From a phage: a stretch of 51,474 nucleotides of DNA. The notes below the pieces were generated by a model that was given only the letters and a program-made list of their open reading frames with translations, did no database searches and was not told the origin of the DNA. The stretch is taken from sequence record PZ445410.1; one strand, written 5' to 3'. This document shows positions 12,576 to 20,820 of the stretch, in pieces. Positions within the stretch are counted from its first letter, which is position 1, and every line of letters starts with the position of its first letter. Both the position numbers and the translations under genes were made by a program.

Positions 12576-13550
12576 ATGGAAAAAGAAAAATTTGATCAGC
12601 TAGATGCAGATATTGTTTCTAGTTATCTGGCTACTCGCGGCGTTAAAGGTGATGCGTCCGATATGGGTATTTGGACCGCTCAAGAGCTACACAAGATTCG
12701 CTCTAATGCTTACGAGAAAGAGTATCCGGCAGGTTCGGCGCTTCGTGTGTTCCCTGTAACTAATGAGCTTTCTGATACTGATAAGACTTTTGAATACCAG
12801 ACTTTTGATAAAGTTGGTTACGCAAAAATTATCGCTGATTATACCGACGACCTGCCAACTGTTGACGCTTTAATGTCCAGCGAGTTTGGTAAGGTGTTCC
12901 GACTTGGTAACGCGTTCTTGATCTCCATTGACGAAATCAAGGCTGGTCAGCGTACTGGTAAGAGCCTTTCCACTCGCAAGGCAAACGCAGCGCAAAACGC
13001 TCATGATCAGGAAGTTAACCGCCTGGTGTTTAAGGGTTCAAAGCCGCATAAGATTCTTTCGGTGTTTGAGCACCCTAACCTGACAAAGATCGTGTCAACT
13101 GGCTGGTTAAGTGCTGATGAAAACACTAAGTTCCCGCAGGCGGCATCTGATGAACTGGAAAAGGCTATTGAAACAATTCAGACCATCACCAATGGTCAGC
13201 ATCGAGCAACCAACATCCTGATTCCGCCGTCTATGCGCAAGGTTCTTTCCGTTCGAATGGAAAACACCACTGAAAGTTATCTGGAATACTTCCAGAAACA
13301 AAACAGCGGAATCACCATTGACTCAATCGCAGAGCTTGAGGATATTGATGGCACAGGAACGAAAGGTTGCCTGGTATATGAGAAAGACCCGATGAACATG
13401 TCGATCGAAATTCCAGAAGCATTTAACATGCTTCCGGCGCAACCAAAAGATCTGCATTTCAAAGTTCCGTGCACTTCAAAATGTACTGGCCTGACGATTT
13501 ACCGTCCGTTTACGCTAGTGCTTATTACTGGCTTGAAAAAATCAGGTTAA
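12576..13550 (+). CDS. major capsid protein (putative)
   Basis: 324 aa, GGAGGAAGAAA RBS, own promoter and strong terminator downstream; assignment by position and size. Confidence 0.55.
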   Translation: MEKEKFDQLDADIVSSYLATRGVKGDASDMGIWTAQELHKIRSNAYEKEYPAGSALRVFPVTNELSDTDKTFEYQTFDKVGYAKIIADYTDDLPTVDALMSSEFGKVFRLGNAFLISIDEIKAGQRTGKSLSTRKANAAQNAHDQEVNRLVFKGSKPHKILSVFEHPNLTKIVSTGWLSADENTKFPQAASDELEKAIETIQTITNGQHRATNILIPPSMRKVLSVRMENTTESYLEYFQKQNSGITIDSIAELEDIDGTGTKGCLVYEKDPMNMSIEIPEAFNMLPAQPKDLHFKVPCTSKCTGLTIYRPFTLVLITGLKKSG

Positions 13551-13927: not shown

Positions 13928-14344
13928 ATGGTTGATGAATTTTTCACTGACGCAGAAATCACGCAGCAAATCGTGAAATTAGCTCCACCGATGAAACAGA
14001 TTGATCCAGATTTAATGGTGGCATGGATTGATCTGGCAAAGGAATTTGTTTGCAAGAAGCGGTTTAAAGAATCATATCCAAAAGCGGTTGCCCTTTATAC
14101 GTTGCACCTTATGACGCTTGACGGAGCTATGAAGCAAGAAGGGGAAAGCGTAGAGAGTTACTCGCGGCGCGTGGCGTCATTTTCCCTGACTGGTGAATTT
14201 AGTCAGACATTTGATCGCGTGTCAGGCGATTCAAGCGGAAAAGAGATTAGACAAACTCCGTGGGGCAAAATGTATGAGACGTTAAATAGAAAAAAAGGCG
14301 GTGGATTTGGCCTTGTGACTGGATTTCGGAGGCGCTGCAAATGA
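13928..14344 (+). CDS. head-tail connector / adaptor protein (putative)
   Basis: Position between capsid and tail genes. Confidence 0.4.
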
Positions 14345-14712
14345 ACTATAACGAGATCGCAAGAATGGCAACCGAAGGAATTAACTTCTTTAGTGATGGC
14401 AACGGTGAGTTTAAGTGCATAACGCAGCGCGGAAGCGTTGAAATCATCGGAGGCGAAGAAGTAGAAAAGCCAGAGATTAGTGTAATGATTAAGGGTTTAA
14501 TTAGATCCCCCAAAGTCAGAGAGGTTGACGGCGAGACAATACGAGTAACCGATAAGTTGGGAGTTTTTAACAATAAAGTTGAAATTAAGAACGGGTATCA
14601 TATTGATGTTGATGGTGAATTATATGTTGTAGTTGAAGCAAGACCAATCAGACAAACCAATGTCACTGTTGCTTATCGGCCTATTTTGAGAAGGATTTCT
14701 GTACATGGCTAA
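14341..14712 (+). CDS. head closure / neck protein (putative)
   Basis: ATGA overlap; gene order. Confidence 0.4.
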
Positions 14713-15148
14713 AAACTACACGATAAGGGAATTTCACGGCAACATTGATGCGTGGATAAACGCCGTTGATAATGGCCTGAAAGATTGCGTTGAGTTGTTC
14801 GCCGAAAAAGTGCATACAGATCTTGTTAAGCGTTCTCCGGTTGATACTGGTCGTTACCGTGCAAACTGGCAGGTAACAGCAAACAAGCCGCCATTGTATG
14901 CGCTTAACCAGTACGATAAGCACGGAGACAAAACGATCGCGGAAGGCAAGCGAGCCATATACGCGATTTTACGAGGTGGCGGCGCAGTAAGAGCCATTTA
15001 TTTTTCTAACATGCTTATTTATGCTAACGCGCTTGAGTACGGTCATTCAAAACAAGCGCCAGCGGGTGTGCTTGGGGTTGTAGCGGTTAAGTTGAGATCT
15101 TATATGGCTGAAGCAATAAAAGAGTCGAGGGCTAAAAATGCACTATGA
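14705..15148 (+). CDS. tail completion protein (putative)
   Basis: Gene order. Confidence 0.4.
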   Translation: MAKNYTIREFHGNIDAWINAVDNGLKDCVELFAEKVHTDLVKRSPVDTGRYRANWQVTANKPPLYALNQYDKHGDKTIAEGKRAIYAILRGGGAVRAIYFSNMLIYANALEYGHSKQAPAGVLGVVAVKLRSYMAEAIKESRAKNAL

Positions 15149-15536
15149 ATTAATGCTATCGGCGCGTAAGGCGCTGGCGACTGAATACGAAAGCAGATTC
15201 ATGATCGCTTATGAAAACGTAGAGTTTACGCCACCTGGTGACGGTTCGCCGTGGTTGAAGTTTGACTATGCCGAAGTTGACACAGAATACTTGTCATTGG
15301 ATCGCAAATGCGTTTCTTATATCGGAATGATTCAGGTTGGTATTGTGTTTCCACCAGGTTACGGAACTGACAGGCCGCGCGTTCTAGCTAAAGAGATTGC
15401 GCAATTCTTTTACGATGGTAAAATGCTGGAGCATGGTTATATATATGAGGGTGCAAGAGTTCACAAGCCGCTCAAGAGTGAAAGCGGTTGGATTCTCCCA
15501 ATAAGGTTTTATGTTCGAATTGAAACAAAGGAGTAA
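15138..15536 (+). CDS. tail terminator protein (putative)
   Basis: Gene order, immediately before major tail protein. Confidence 0.4.
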   Translation: MHYELMLSARKALATEYESRFMIAYENVEFTPPGDGSPWLKFDYAEVDTEYLSLDRKCVSYIGMIQVGIVFPPGYGTDRPRVLAKEIAQFFYDGKMLEHGYIYEGARVHKPLKSESGWILPIRFYVRIETKE

Positions 15537-15541
15537 AAATT

Positions 15542-16204
15542 ATGCATTTACCAAATGGATCGCAAATTTTCGTTGAGAGCAATCGCGGAAGCGAAATCCA
15601 AGCAACAGCAGTGTCAAACGCCAAAGATCCTGTTTTCACTGTTGCATCTGGCGGCACTGCGTACAAGAAAGGTGATTATGTGATCATCACTGCGTCTTCT
15701 TGGGGTAAGCTGATTGATCGTGTTATGCGTGTAAAGGCTAACGGTGAAGAAACAAGCGTAACTCTTGAAGGCGTAGATACTACTGATCAGAACGTTTTCC
15801 CGTCTGGCGGTACTGCATCTTTTGCCAAAATTGATGCATGGACTGAGATCCCTTGCGTTCAGGATTTGTCGCAGGACGGCGGCGAACAGCAATACTACAC
15901 TTATCAGTGTTTGGCAGACGATCAGGAACAGCAGTTACCTACCTATAAGAGCGCAGTTTCTCTGACATACACTTTTGCTCACGAATACGATAACGCGATC
16001 TATCCGCTATTGCGTTCAGCAGATGAATCAGGCGCTGTAACGGCGCTTCGTATGTATGTACCAAAAGCAAAAGAGATGCGTTGCTGGGCTGGTGTACTTT
16101 CGTTTAACGAAATCCCGCAGACCACAGTTAACGAAATGGAAACTGTTTCCCTTTCTGTATCACTGAAAGGTCGATTCACCTTTCTACCTTCTCAAGTAGA
16201 GTAA
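15542..16204 (+). CDS. major tail protein
   Basis: 220 aa, strong terminator after it, directly upstream of G/GT chaperone and tape measure. Confidence 0.6.
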   Translation: MHLPNGSQIFVESNRGSEIQATAVSNAKDPVFTVASGGTAYKKGDYVIITASSWGKLIDRVMRVKANGEETSVTLEGVDTTDQNVFPSGGTASFAKIDAWTEIPCVQDLSQDGGEQQYYTYQCLADDQEQQLPTYKSAVSLTYTFAHEYDNAIYPLLRSADESGAVTALRMYVPKAKEMRCWAGVLSFNEIPQTTVNEMETVSLSVSLKGRFTFLPSQVE

Positions 16205-16207
16205 TAA

Positions 16208-16232
16208 CAAGGGGCGTTGCGCCCCTTTTTTT
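16208..16232 (+). terminator. intrinsic terminator
   Basis: GGGGCG-TTG-CGCCCC then T7. Confidence 0.7.
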
Positions 16233-16246
16233 GTTACTGTACAATC

Positions 16247-16289
16247 ATGATACACGATTCATAATCAATTCTTTTAACAAAAAGTGCTA
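16247..16289 (-). promoter_or_regulatory. TAGCAC-box cassette in reverse orientation (TATCAT at canonical spacing)
   Basis: Exact reverse complement of the motif 15 nt upstream of the G gene ATG; points into the 16208-16232 terminator. Confidence 0.3.
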
Positions 16290-16303
16290 TCAAGGAGAAA
16301 GAA

Positions 16304-16621
16304 ATGTCAAAAATGAAATTGACGATTGGGCCGCTTCCTGACTTTAAATTACCAGTGAAATTTGCAATGCCTAACGGAGAAGATCAAACAATTATCTTCA
16401 CAGTTCGCCACCGCAAAACAAGTGAGATTCACGAGCGCTACACGTCAGATACTCCAATGAGCGATGTTGAAATGATCACCTTCCTTGCTTCTGGTTGGAA
16501 TCTTGATGATGAATTTAACGAAGAAAATATTAAACAGCTTCTTGATTACTACCCAGCAACAGCAATCGGATTAACTAGCGCATACATGAAAGCGCTTGCG
16601 GGGCAGCGAGTAAAAAACTAA
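16304..16621 (+). CDS. tail assembly chaperone (gpG-like)
   Basis: 105 aa ORF before tape measure, ends just after slippery heptamer. Confidence 0.65.
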   Translation: MSKMKLTIGPLPDFKLPVKFAMPNGEDQTIIFTVRHRKTSEIHERYTSDTPMSDVEMITFLASGWNLDDEFNEENIKQLLDYYPATAIGLTSAYMKALAGQRVKN

Positions 16622-16932
16622 AAAGGGCGGTTTACCTGTTTTATCAGAAACCGCCGACAGATGCAGAGCTTGAGGCTGTTGGCCTTACAAGGGCAGACTA
16701 TGAAGGAGAAGATCCGCCAGAGGTTATATTTGATGAAAGCATGATGCAATCATGGGATATATTTTGCGCAATGCAAACGCAATGGAGATGTTCTGGCGGT
16801 GGAGCTTACGGATTTGATTATAATGTCTTGCCTATGCTTTTTGAGATTTACAAGGTTGAGGATCGCGAGATGGCGCTAAACGACTTGCGAATCATGGAGC
16901 AAAAAGCACTTGAAATGATGCATTCAAAATAA
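16304..16932 (+). CDS. tail assembly chaperone G-T fusion via programmed -1 frameshift at A_AAA_AAC (16612-16618)
   Basis: -1 frame is open from 16579 to 16932; canonical X_XXY_YYZ heptamer 2 codons before G stop. Confidence 0.55.
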
Positions 16933-16953
16933 GCGCCTACGGGCGCTTTTTTA
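16932..16953 (+). terminator. intrinsic terminator
   Basis: AGCGCC-TACG-GGCGCT then TTTTTT. Confidence 0.6.
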
Positions 16954-16971
16954 TTACCTGGAGGATTAATA

Positions 16972-19644
16972 ATGTCAGAACAATACGCAGGCTTGACGCT
17001 TGGGGTTGATGTATCTCAACTCAACAATGCTGTAAAGTCTTTGCAGCAATTCAAGAAGGCAAACGACGACGCAAAGGGAAGCGTTGAGAGTTTTGTTGAT
17101 TCAGAGGTTGTTGCAAGACAAAGAGCCAAACAACTGGCTGAGGAATTGGCAAAGCAGAAGCAAGAATTTAAAGCAATTCAGTCGGCAATAGATCCGACAG
17201 CAAGCAAAATGGATAAGTTGCGCCAGGCTGCGACACAGCTTGATGCACTATGGAAAAAAGGAATTGTGCCGGATGATACATTCTTTGAATTAGGTTCAAT
17301 TCTTGAGACACAGCAAAACAAGCTGATCGCAACGAAAAAGGCGCTAACAGAAGAAGGCCGAGCGGCGATTGAGGAAGCAAAGAATAAAGCCAGGGCAGAG
17401 GCTGAGGCCAGAAAGTTCATTGCGGCATTACAGGCACAAGCAGACGCAGCAGAAAAGACAAAATCAGAACTTGTTGAAATGAGAGCCGCACAACTTGGAG
17501 TTAGTGCGGAGGCCGCGCCATTTATTGCAAAAATGAAGGAGCAGGAAAAACAAGCCTCAAAACTTGGCGTTTCTATGGGGCAGTACAAGCAAGCAATGGC
17601 GCAATTGCCAATGCAGATCACTGACGTTGTTACTTCTCTTGCTTCAGGAATGCCAGTATGGATGATCGCAATCCAGCAGGGCGGGCAGATCAAGGACTCA
17701 TTCGGCGGTGTTGCTAATACTTTTAAAGCGCTAATGACATTTGTCACGCCGCTAAGTGTTGGAATGACGGCGCTGACTGGTGCTCTTGGGTATGCAGCAT
17801 ATAACGCTTACAAAGCCAACGCACAACTGAAGGAGATCACAAAAACCGTTCAGGATGTAACAGGTCTTTCCGGTGAGTTTGCAGAGCGGATCGCAACTGG
17901 AATCCAGGCGCTATCTGACAAGACAGGAGAGAGCGCAGACAATATCGCAAAGGCTTACATAAGCACTAAGGATGGAGCAAGCGAGGCTATACAAAAACTC
18001 GTCGATGTTGGATTTACCTATGACGAAGCAAAGGCAAAAGTAAACGAATACAAAAACGCATCAAGTTTTGTAAGTCTTAACAATGAAATTGCTGATCACA
18101 AAAACAAAGTTCTTGAGCTTGGCGATTCATGGTATGCGGTCTTAAAAGCAAAACGTGATTATGCTTCACCGTCCGGCGGGCTGTTGGGGAAAGAGCTTGG
18201 TTATGTGAATCCAATGCTGCAATTTGCGAAGAACACCTATGAGGATATAGGAAAGATCGTAAAAGATGCGAATAAGGATATGGCGGAACGAGCAGCACGC
18301 ATCGACAGAGAAAACCTTTCCTTAAACAGAGTTCGAGCGGCGCAAGAGGCTTTAAACAAAGCCATAGAGGATCAGAAGAACGTAGCAAGGACAGCAGACG
18401 AAGAGTTGAAAAAACGAGCGGCTGAGAACGTGGAGTTCAGGAGAAAAGAGCTTGAAGAGGCGAAGAAGGCGCAGCAGCAAAAGGAAAAAGTTGGTGGAGT
18501 TGTAAAAGCACCAACAGAGCAGCTTGATAAGGAGCTATATGTTCTCAAAGCGCAACTTGAAACTCTGAAAGAGCACCGAACTGTAAATGATGTTATTTCA
18601 CGCCAGAGGCAATCTTTGTGGAGTATTGAAAAGCAGATCCAGATCCTGGAGGAAGCGCAAAGCAAACGTAAGCTGACAAAAGCGGAACAGGCGTTACTAA
18701 ACGAGCAAAAAACAGTTCTTGCCATGGCAAAAGAAAAGGCCGAGATAGGCGATCAGATTGTTTTGCAACAGAGAAAGAACAAGCAATACCAGGAAGGGCT
18801 AAAGTTCATTCAGCAAACTTCAGATGCCATTGATGCTATGAACTTGCGACAGTCTGGAGCTACAGATCTGCAAATCCAGCGAGAGCTTGAATTGAAAAAG
18901 TTGCGAACTGATTATGTTGCTGGCGGAGGTAGTATCGACGATGAAATTTATCAGCAGATGGAAGAAAAGCTGAAGGAGTATTACGCCACTGAGGATCAGC
19001 TAAGAAATAACTGGATTGCAGGAGCAAAAAACGCATGGGAGGTTTACGGACAAGATGCAATGGATATGTACGGAAACGTGCAAGATATTGCAAGCGAGGC
19101 GCTCAACGGTCTAACCAACCAAATGGCTACATTCCTTGCAACAGGCAAGGCAAACTTTAAGAGCTTCGCAACGTCAATCATCCAAATGATTATCCAGATG
19201 ATCACGAAGATGGTTATCTTTAATGCCATATCTGGTGCGATTGGCGGTGACACTTGGACGATTGGAAGCCTTCTTAAAAATGTTGGATTTGCAACTGGTG
19301 GATACACTGGCGACGGCGGGAAGTATGAGCCAGCAGGTGTTGTCCATAAAGGCGAGTTTGTCATGACGAAGGAGGCCACGAAGCGGATCGGAGTTGGAAA
19401 TCTTTACAAAATGATGCGCGGTTATGCAAATGGCGGCGTTGTTGGCGGAACTTCATACACTGGCGGCGGAGTTTCATCTGGAGCAACAAATCTTAATATT
19501 GGTGGGATCAGCGTTGATATTAACAACGGAAACGATCCGAAAGGGTTGGAGACTGGCGTAAAAATGATTTTCACTGATATGATTAAGCGTTCCTGTACGC
19601 AGGGTGGGGAAGTTTACGAATTTGTTATGTCTAAGCGGGGGTGA
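16972..19644 (+). CDS. tail tape measure protein
   Basis: 890 aa, long Ala/Glu/Lys/Gln-rich coiled-coil-like stretches, Gly-rich C-terminal part; position after G/GT. Confidence 0.8.
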
Positions 19645-19700
19645 TAGTGAAACTTGAGCAATTCAAATGGTGCACGCAAACGCAAGGAGGCGGCGGCACT

Positions 19701-19997
19701 ATGACCACATCAAATAACGACAGGGAAATCTCATTTGGTAATGGTTACACGCAGGTTGCGTCAGGAGGGTTTAACACTGTACGCAGGGAGTTTTCCATTG
19801 TCTATGTGGGTAATGATTACCGAGATGTTGTTGACTTCCTGAATGGTCACAGGTTGAAGCCGTTTTTATGGTTTATGCCTGACGGTCAACCTGGTCTATT
19901 CAGGGTGAAATCTGGTAGCGTTGGATTGACTCCAATATCAGCAACTGTTCAGGAAGTGAAAGCAACATTTACTGAGCAATTTACATCAATGCAATAA
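19701..19997 (+). CDS. minor tail protein (lambda gpM-like)
   Basis: FGNGYTQ...FLWFMPDG resembles lambda M as I recall it; AAGGAGG RBS at internal ATG. Confidence 0.6.
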   Translation: MTTSNNDREISFGNGYTQVASGGFNTVRREFSIVYVGNDYRDVVDFLNGHRLKPFLWFMPDGQPGLFRVKSGSVGLTPISATVQEVKATFTEQFTSMQ

Positions 19998-20002
19998 TTC
20001 AA

Positions 20003-20027
20003 GCCGCCTTTGTGCGGCTTTTTTATT
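20003..20027 (+). terminator. intrinsic terminator
   Basis: AGCCGC-CTTTGT-GCGGCT then TTTTTT. Confidence 0.6.
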
Positions 20028-20058
20028 GATGATACAATGCACGAAAGGAGGTGCAATT

Positions 20059-20820
20059 ATGGCTAATGAAACAACAGGTCGCGCGGATCTTGAAAATTGT
20101 CTGCAAAGCCTTTACCCTGGCGAGATTATCACGCTAATTGAGATTGACGGCACAAAGTTTGGCGCAAACATTTACCGCATACACAATGAGAATATCTCAT
20201 ACACTGCGGAAGAATTATTACAGGCGCGAGAAACTGGAGTTCTTCCGCCGAAAGAGATTACATTCCGTGGTGAGGTTTACGGCGCTCGCCCGTTCGGAAT
20301 ATCTGGAATAAACTTCACAAGCAACGGAAAGGCTGATAAGCCACAATTGATACTATCAAACCTTGATAGCCAGGTGAGCGCGATGATTCGTAACTTTAAC
20401 GGCATGATGCAAGCAAAGGTGACAATATGGATCACGCCAGCCGAATTGATGGGAAAAGATGGTAGCATTAAAGATGGTGCTTCAAGAAGGCTGGTTTATT
20501 ACATTGAACGACCAAGCCATTACAATAGAATGATGGCAAAATTTGATCTGACATCGCCTTATGATATGGATGGAATAATGATTCCTCCGCGAATAACTCA
20601 AAGCGTTTGTTATTGGGCGCAGCGTGGATGGTATCGAAGCGGAAAAGGTTGCGGATACAATGGATCGCGAATGTTTGATAAAGACAACAATCCTGTAACA
20701 GATCCATCTCAAGACTTTTGCGCCGGAACTGTAACAGCGTGCAAACTTCGTTTTGGTGCAGATCAGCAGCTTGATTTTGGCGGCGCACCAGTAGCAAGCC
20801 TGTTAAGGAGAAGTCAGTGA
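20059..20820 (+). CDS. minor tail protein (lambda gpL-like)
   Basis: CYWAQRGWYRSGKGCGY and C-terminal Cys cluster resemble lambda L as I recall it; AGGAGG RBS. Confidence 0.6.
   Translation: MANETTGRADLENCLQSLYPGEIITLIEIDGTKFGANIYRIHNENISYTAEELLQARETGVLPPKEITFRGEVYGARPFGISGINFTSNGKADKPQLILSNLDSQVSAMIRNFNGMMQAKVTIWITPAELMGKDGSIKDGASRRLVYYIERPSHYNRMMAKFDLTSPYDMDGIMIPPRITQSVCYWAQRGWYRSGKGCGYNGSRMFDKDNNPVTDPSQDFCAGTVTACKLRFGADQQLDFGGAPVASLLRRSQ

Follow-up and report, generated by a model that had tools for sequence, protein, structure and literature searches.

Programmed -1 frameshifting in the tail assembly chaperone genes is already known for the T1-like phage family and is merely unannotated in the records closest to the phage considered here. 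Joined coding sequences that span both chaperone reading frames are annotated in phage TLS (tfmS, alongside tfmA and tfmB), in Citrobacter phage Sazh (as the "Tape measure chaperone frameshift product") and in Klebsiella phage Sushi, and their lengths fit the -1 slip described below. These genes, together with genes 40/39 of T1, are orthologues of the present pair, with 47-73% identity over the fusion, and likewise lie between the genes for the major tail protein and the tape measure protein. Papers on the T1-like phages Stevie (PMC4319613), U136B (PMC8104045) and Rogue1 (PMC3496638) were counted in support, and a search of the searchable literature found no direct protein, ribosome-profiling or reporter demonstration in any T1-like phage.

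A passage of PMC4493119, citing Xu et al. 2004, 2013 and 2014, sets out the general G/GT model, in which the tape measure protein of lambda is the binding partner of G and of the G domain of GT, and the T domain serves to recruit the major tail protein. For lambda G/GT itself, Xu, Hendrix and Duda 2004 is the work cited in passages of both PMC4493119 and PMC8104045.

The sequence analysed, PZ445410.1, is that of a T1-like siphophage of the genus Hanrivervirus (Drexlerviridae, Tempevirinae), a coliphage; "the window" refers to the whole stretch of 51,474 nucleotides. The region from 15500 to 17500 is 97.5% identical to that of Escherichia phage JLBYU09 and 95-97% identical to those of ∼40 other records, and the closest Hanrivervirus records are without a join annotation. 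The analysis described below indicates that the tail assembly chaperone pair of this siphophage is very probably expressed by -1 programmed ribosomal frameshifting of the lambda G/GT type.

Results

Organization of the G-T locus

Two ORFs separate the major tail protein gene from the tape measure gene. They and their surroundings are arranged as follows.

15138-15536: tail terminator gene (Pfam Phage_tail_terminator_5)
15542-16204: major tail (tube) protein gene (Pfam Phage_tail_3, 2.6e-64)
about 16209-16235, + strand: intrinsic terminator separating the major tail protein gene from G (equivalent annotated in T1, Sazh and Sushi)
16293-16297, + strand: Shine-Dalgarno sequence AGGAG of G, 6 nt before ATG 16304 (anti-Shine-Dalgarno duplex -8.5 kcal/mol)
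16304-16621, + strand: ORF of the G-like tail assembly chaperone, 105 aa, translated in the zero frame (PF08748 Phage_TAC_4, E 1.8e-30)
16612-16618, + strand: slippery heptamer A_AAA_AAC, with AAA (Lys) as P-site and AAC (Asn) as A-site codon
16618-16932, + strand: T segment as read following a -1 slip, 104 codons and then the stop at 16930-16932 (PF08809 DUF1799, E 3.5e-12)
16619-16621, + strand: zero-frame stop codon TAA, abutting the heptamer
16626-16655, + strand: candidate stimulatory hairpin, starting 7 nt 3' of the heptamer
16741-16932, + strand: 63-aa ORF, read here as the C-terminal part of T and not as an independent gene (a separate gene in many GenBank records)
about 16931-16956, + strand: intrinsic terminator that overlaps the stop codon of T and precedes the tape measure gene (equivalent annotated in T1, Sazh and Sushi)
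16972-19644: tape measure protein gene, 890 aa, ATG 16972 (Pfam TMP_2 and Tape_meas_lam_C)
19641-19997: lambda M-like gene (Pfam Phage_min_tail)

The two intrinsic terminators, whose narrower bounds are 16209-16227 and 16931-16948, bracket the G-T unit, a layout that is annotated in the same form in T1, Sazh and Sushi; they may tune the ratios of chaperone, tape measure and tube proteins at the level of transcription.

Three further observations concern neighboring genes. The mechanically assigned start of a major-capsid-like ORF of 338 aa, GTG 12534, has no Shine-Dalgarno sequence (+2.2 kcal/mol), and an in-frame ATG at 12576 behind GGAGG (-9.3 kcal/mol) is the likelier start. The TTG start listed for a lambda-L-like ORF at 20026 (20026-20060 of the window) also has no Shine-Dalgarno sequence (-1.7 kcal/mol), and translation may in fact begin at an internal ATG (MANETTG...). 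An in-frame A_AAA_AAA occurs within 14290-14344, 15 codons before the stop of the gene at 13928-14344; the -1 frame entered from it runs into the gene at 14341-14712, a gene with an ATG and a Shine-Dalgarno sequence of its own, and the site is probably coincidental.

The slip site and the -1 reading frame

The initial annotation had placed the heptamer A_AAA_AAC at 16612-16618, near the end of a gpG-like ORF of 105 aa. Direct reading of the sequence bears out both the site and the ORF (16304-16621), the last zero-frame codons of which are GTA (16610), AAA (16613), AAC (16616) and the stop TAA (16619-16621). The statement that this ORF ends two codons after the heptamer was wrong: its last two sense codons lie inside the heptamer, with the stop immediately 3' of it. 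As had been described, the -1 frame is open from 16579 to 16932, being closed upstream by a TAG at 16576-16578 and ended by the TAA at 16930-16932. It was also placed correctly ahead of the tape measure gene, the gap to ATG 16972 being 39 nt, not 40.

In the zero frame the heptamer is in the X_XXY_YYZ register, as a tandem -1 slip needs, and the downstream ORF overlaps the end of G in the -1 frame without initiation signals of its own. The predicted G-T fusion is 209 aa in length, with the junction ...AGQRVKN-LKRAVYLFYQKPPTD... (that is, ...GQRVKN-LKRAVYL...). The correct gene model is G (16304-16621) plus a joined GT coding sequence, join(16304..16618,16618..16932). Use of the +1 frame, which closes after 19 codons, was rejected, as was read-through of the G stop codon, beyond which the zero frame continues for 40 unconserved codons. 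A GGGG at 16600-16603 was considered as an upstream Shine-Dalgarno stimulator like that of dnaX and was dropped, as it is not conserved in T1 or Shfl1.

Taken by itself, the heptamer is unremarkable: the window contains 20 copies of AAAAAAC, against 22.3 ± 4.3 expected from shuffles, and its ORFs of at least 80 aa hold 61 in-frame X_XXY_YYZ sites. What does stand out is the open -1 frame: its 117 stop-free codons have a probability of ∼0.0007 from base composition, and the longest of 407 background stop-free -1 runs, taken from eight long genes of the window, was 53 codons. The A_AAA_AAC at 16612-16618 is the sole in-frame heptamer located where a gene ends and followed by a long, startless open frame; the other in-frame heptamers with a long -1 extension either reach the next annotated gene or lie within a nested spurious ORF.

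Family membership of G and T

Against Pfam PF08748 (Phage_TAC_4), G scored 106.2 bits (cutoff 21.1), with residues 1-105 aligned to positions 1-124 of the 124-position profile, and it also matched PHROG 569. T scored 46.8 bits against PF08809 (DUF1799; cutoff 26), residues 127-206 of the fusion being aligned to positions 2-80 of 80; this match starts 20 residues ahead of the point where the -1 frame has its first methionine.

PHROG 17368 (213 positions), a family built from fused G-T proteins of T1-like phages, was matched by both halves, G at positions 1-107 (2.9e-39) and T at 109-211 (1.6e-55). The -1-frame peptide aligns to it from its first residue, the two halves are contiguous across the junction, and the join in the family falls where the heptamer is.

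Similarity to the lambda proteins was not detected: a GT profile of 11 sequences compared with lambda GT gave an hhalign probability of 0.3%, and Pfam gave no match to the lambda G/T families at E values up to 0.01. A sequence search of the PDB with the GT profile returned nothing below E 0.17. The AlphaFold2 model of the GT fusion, computed from single-sequence input, had a pLDDT of 42.5 and was unusable. A homologous-protein search with the fusion gave three matches, all of them T-frame ORFs of 123-136 aa and too few to align.

Conservation of the arrangement

A tblastn search with the fusion matched 1155 phage records, and in 1078 of these the query is matched over at least 80% of its length by two segments that lie in different frames. 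The comparison set consisted of the window, 20 annotated relatives (down to 28% identity) and 80 IMG/VR loci; the relatives include T1, TLS, Sazh, Shfl1, phiKP26, Sushi, a Dhillonvirus, and Pseudomonas and Ralstonia phages.

T lies in the -1 frame with respect to G in all 21 sequences formed by the window and its annotated relatives, and in 79 of the 80 IMG/VR loci. In the same sequences the T frame stays open through the G stop, spanning 103-174 codons, and the +1 frame closes quickly. The peptide that follows the slip is conserved from its first residue in the 21 phages, with the motif L-K/R-R-A-V-Y-L-x-Y-Q-x-P-P-T-D-x-E-L in the enterobacterial phages and L-x-x-A-x-x-x-L-Y-x-x-x-P in the distant ones. 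Gene order, the conserved -1 relation and the slip site together bear out the match to the G/GT arrangement of long-tailed phages that the initial annotation had drawn.

All 21 of these sequences, and 79 of 80 IMG/VR loci, have a slip site within the final codons of G; it exists in five sequence variants, not all of which are canonical. Most annotated relatives have A_AAA_AAC at the same position. Among the IMG/VR loci, the seven bases before the G stop are A_AAA_AAC in 61 of 79, A_AAA_GTT in 15 (Webervirus) and A_AAG_GTC in three (Rogunavirus). Other heptamers among the annotated phages are A_AAG_GGT (BabyEgg) and G_GGA_AAC (Pseudomonas phage YMC11/02/R656 and Ralstonia phage YO104_1), so that three canonical heptamers, A_AAA_AAC, A_AAG_GGT and G_GGA_AAC, are seen at the site. 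The stop codon lies directly 3' of the slip-site 7-mer in every scored locus except the most distant one, HBM00, where it is one codon further.

Tandem tRNA slippage is impossible on the A_AAA_GTT of Webervirus (L014, Sushi, at about 716-727, and L055-L070) and on the A_AAG_GTC of Rogunavirus (L011 and L051-L053), in which, moreover, no stable hairpin forms downstream (-1.8 to -3.4 kcal/mol). The possible slip on these two sequences is that of tRNA-Lys on A_AAA or A_AAG alone. Since neither lineage has a canonical tandem-slip heptamer, the slip mechanism may differ across the family.

The single exception to the -1 relation is the IMG/VR locus L071 (IMGVR_UViG_2619619144_000009), in which a run of eight A at about 913-935, where its relatives have seven, fuses G and T in frame. 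This locus has a second frame break within T, at a run of five G (about 1141-1165), and its breaks are most likely homopolymer sequencing errors, or else mark a decaying prophage.

A candidate downstream hairpin

The initial annotation had proposed a search for a downstream stimulatory structure, and a candidate hairpin was found 7 nt 3' of the heptamer. Its outer stem is formed by GGCGGUUU (16626-16633) pairing with AAACCGCC (16648-16655) and its inner stem by CUG (16636-16638) pairing with CAG (16645-16647). The minimum free energy is -15.1 kcal/mol, which corresponds to a z value of -2.4 relative to dinucleotide shuffles. Because the hairpin region encodes conserved residues (RAV...KPP), synonymous recodings of the -1-frame peptide, made with the phage's own codon usage, served as a further control; relative to these the z value is -3.4, and 0.25% of 2000 recodings were equally stable.

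The hairpin is also more stable than its recodings in T1, Shfl1, TLS, Sazh, EcoS-95 and K50_evo14 (z values of -3.1 to -5.4) but not in BabyEgg, CS01, phiKP26, PsgS01F, K62PH164C2, Ec_L1 or Sushi. It is present in most Hanrivervirus, Tlsvirus and Tunavirus relatives but is missing or poorly formed in Rogunavirus, in Ec_L1 and in CS01. Two Warwickvirus-like IMG/VR loci (L022 and L030, ∼90% protein identity) have lost its 5' arm. In an alignment of 35 sequences, 79% of cells were paired, compared with 37-51% when the partners were slid. The covariation score in these 35 sequences was no better than that of the slid controls, the changes being almost all one-sided (U-A to U-G). An H-type pseudoknot (loop 26-31 with columns 47-52 of alignment A2) found no support: its helix 2 is 68% paired, shows no covariation and competes with the inner stem. 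An Rfam scan of 16200-17000 at E values up to 1 gave sub-threshold matches to unrelated small RNA families and no frameshift element. The hairpin is, then, a credible and correctly spaced candidate stimulator for PZ445410.1 and the nearest genera, and is neither universal nor proven.

Proposed mechanism

From this anatomy we infer that most ribosomes would translate G (105 aa) and terminate at the TAA at 16619-16621, and that a minority would slip back by one base while the P site holds tRNA-Lys paired to AAA and the A site tRNA-Asn paired to AAC. Both tRNAs would then re-pair with AAA AAA, after which the ribosome would decode CUA (Leu, 16618-16620) and continue in the -1 frame to 16932, yielding the 209-aa GT protein. 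The hairpin at 16626-16655 probably acts as a roadblock at the mRNA entrance that raises the frequency of slipping, and the abutting stop codon may also contribute. Lambda G/GT suggests by analogy that the G part, common to both products, would coat the tape measure protein and that the T part (DUF1799), carried by the rare fusion, would recruit the major tail protein; neither G nor GT would be expected in the virion. As no similarity to lambda G/T is detectable, this functional model is carried over by synteny and architecture, not by homology.

A variant of this scheme gives the stop codon a larger part. The near-universal abutting stop and the existence of two non-canonical lineages, one of them without a hairpin, raise the speculative possibility that the stop or a P-site slip of tRNA-Lys outweighs the hairpin. 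The stop would then be integral to the recoding signal, with the slip assisted by a termination pause and the hairpin serving as a lineage-specific booster; we consider this rather unlikely. If it were true, these phages would form a natural series for hairpin-independent -1 frameshifting in E. coli and Klebsiella.

Alternative explanations

The T frame could instead be a small separate gene, the 63-aa DUF1799 protein being translated from ATG 16741 with no frameshift. Most GenBank entries for close relatives do annotate it in this way, a separate ORF of ∼63 aa being given for JLBYU09, Henu8, EcoS-95, BabyEgg, T1 and others, and the ATG is present in PZ445410.1 and its near relatives. It lies, however, 41 codons past the slip point, and the -1 frame contains no ATG, GTG or TTG between 16579 and 16741. 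The anti-Shine-Dalgarno duplex energy at ATG 16741 is -2.7 kcal/mol, about the level of a random ATG (the median of all ATGs in the region is -2.2), compared with -8 to -10 kcal/mol at true starts, among them those of G (-8.5), the major tail protein (-8.2) and the tape measure protein (-9.3). The 41 codons ahead of this ATG also encode conserved protein from the slip point onward, to which DUF1799 and PHROG 17368 align. Among the relatives, moreover, the first ATG of the T frame is found anywhere from T residue 9 to residue 91, and in the Ralstonia phage a start there leaves 12 residues. Independent translation of the 63-aa ORF thus has little support and is judged very unlikely.

Transcriptional slippage would bring G and T into frame if RNA polymerase added one A within the A6 run, giving the junction ...VKK-LKR..., and a ribosomal slip confined to the P site would also yield VKK-L. 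The slip site does hold a run of six A (seven in one clade), and L071 is an instance of a homopolymer-length variant whose eight A give an in-frame fusion. Productive transcriptional slippage, however, normally needs homopolymer runs of about 8-9 or more, and the second break of L071, at its G5 run, suggests sequencing error. The relatives with A_AAG_GGT and G_GGA_AAC keep the same arrangement with no long homopolymer, both heptamers being canonical ribosomal slip sites. That canonical heptamers replace one another at a single codon is what would be expected of a ribosomal slip site under selection and argues against homopolymer slippage by the polymerase, and a hairpin at the classic 7-nt spacing likewise fits ribosomal frameshifting. 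Transcriptional slippage is regarded as highly improbable.

That the break is an artefact or a product of decay (a sequencing indel, a pseudogenised single G-T gene or a chance open frame) has a negligible probability and is, on the comparative sequence data, as good as refuted, for although the heptamer by itself is no commoner than chance, the same -1 break recurs at the same codon in about 100 independent genomes of several genera and hosts, the open -1 frame far exceeds any background run, and the T frame shows protein-level conservation and a Pfam match.

Discussion

Ribosomal -1 frameshifting at A_AAA_AAC remains our preferred reading of the G-T locus, and its practical value is one of annotation, in the form of a corrected gene model with a joined GT. 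Hanrivervirus records (JLBYU09, Henu8, damhaus) list G and a shortened 63-aa "T" as separate ORFs or omit T; in phage damhaus T is omitted entirely and G is named "TfmS." RefSeq or PHROG-derived labels call both G and the shortened T ORF "tail length tape measure protein" (L001, L002, L009 and relatives). Such labels mislead automated pipelines. Biologically nothing is new, this being another case of the G/GT strategy setting the chaperone ratio in siphophage tail assembly. Accurate models of the isoforms are of some use in another respect, since tail assembly chaperones are reported to trigger a bacterial Avs sensor (bioRxiv 10.64898/2026.01.04.697583).

The locus resembles lambda G/GT in its overlapping ORFs between the major tail and tape measure genes, in the startless downstream ORF in the -1 frame and in an X_XXY_YYZ site near the end of G. 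Also lambda-like in PZ445410.1 are its tape measure protein and its homologues of M, L, K, I and J. It differs from lambda in the Pfam families of the pair, here Phage_TAC_4 and DUF1799, with no detectable sequence similarity in G or T, and in the heptamer, which is A_AAA_AAC in PZ445410.1 and G_GGA_AAG in lambda. The stop codon abuts the heptamer in PZ445410.1, whereas lambda G continues for six more codons, and a further point of contrast with lambda is the hairpin placed 7 nt 3' of the heptamer.

Among A-rich -1 sites of E. coli are those of IS1 insAB' (A_AAA_AAC) and dnaX (A_AAA_AAG). For dnaX, a passage of PMC4344849 describes the heptamer together with flanking mRNA structural barriers. 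PZ445410.1 shares with both systems the host translation machinery and the same or nearly the same heptamer, which relies on the slippery tRNA-Lys, and with dnaX it also shares a downstream stem-loop. Unlike dnaX, it has no evident conserved upstream Shine-Dalgarno-like stimulator, and its proteins are unrelated to those of IS1 insAB' and dnaX.

The closest correspondence is with the T1-like orthologues, which depart from the present pair by no more than divergence in sequence. Where PZ445410.1 has A_AAA_AAC, Sushi (Webervirus) has the non-canonical A_AAA_GTT; TLS, Sazh and T1 have the identical A_AAA_AAC-TAA and the same hairpin as PZ445410.1.
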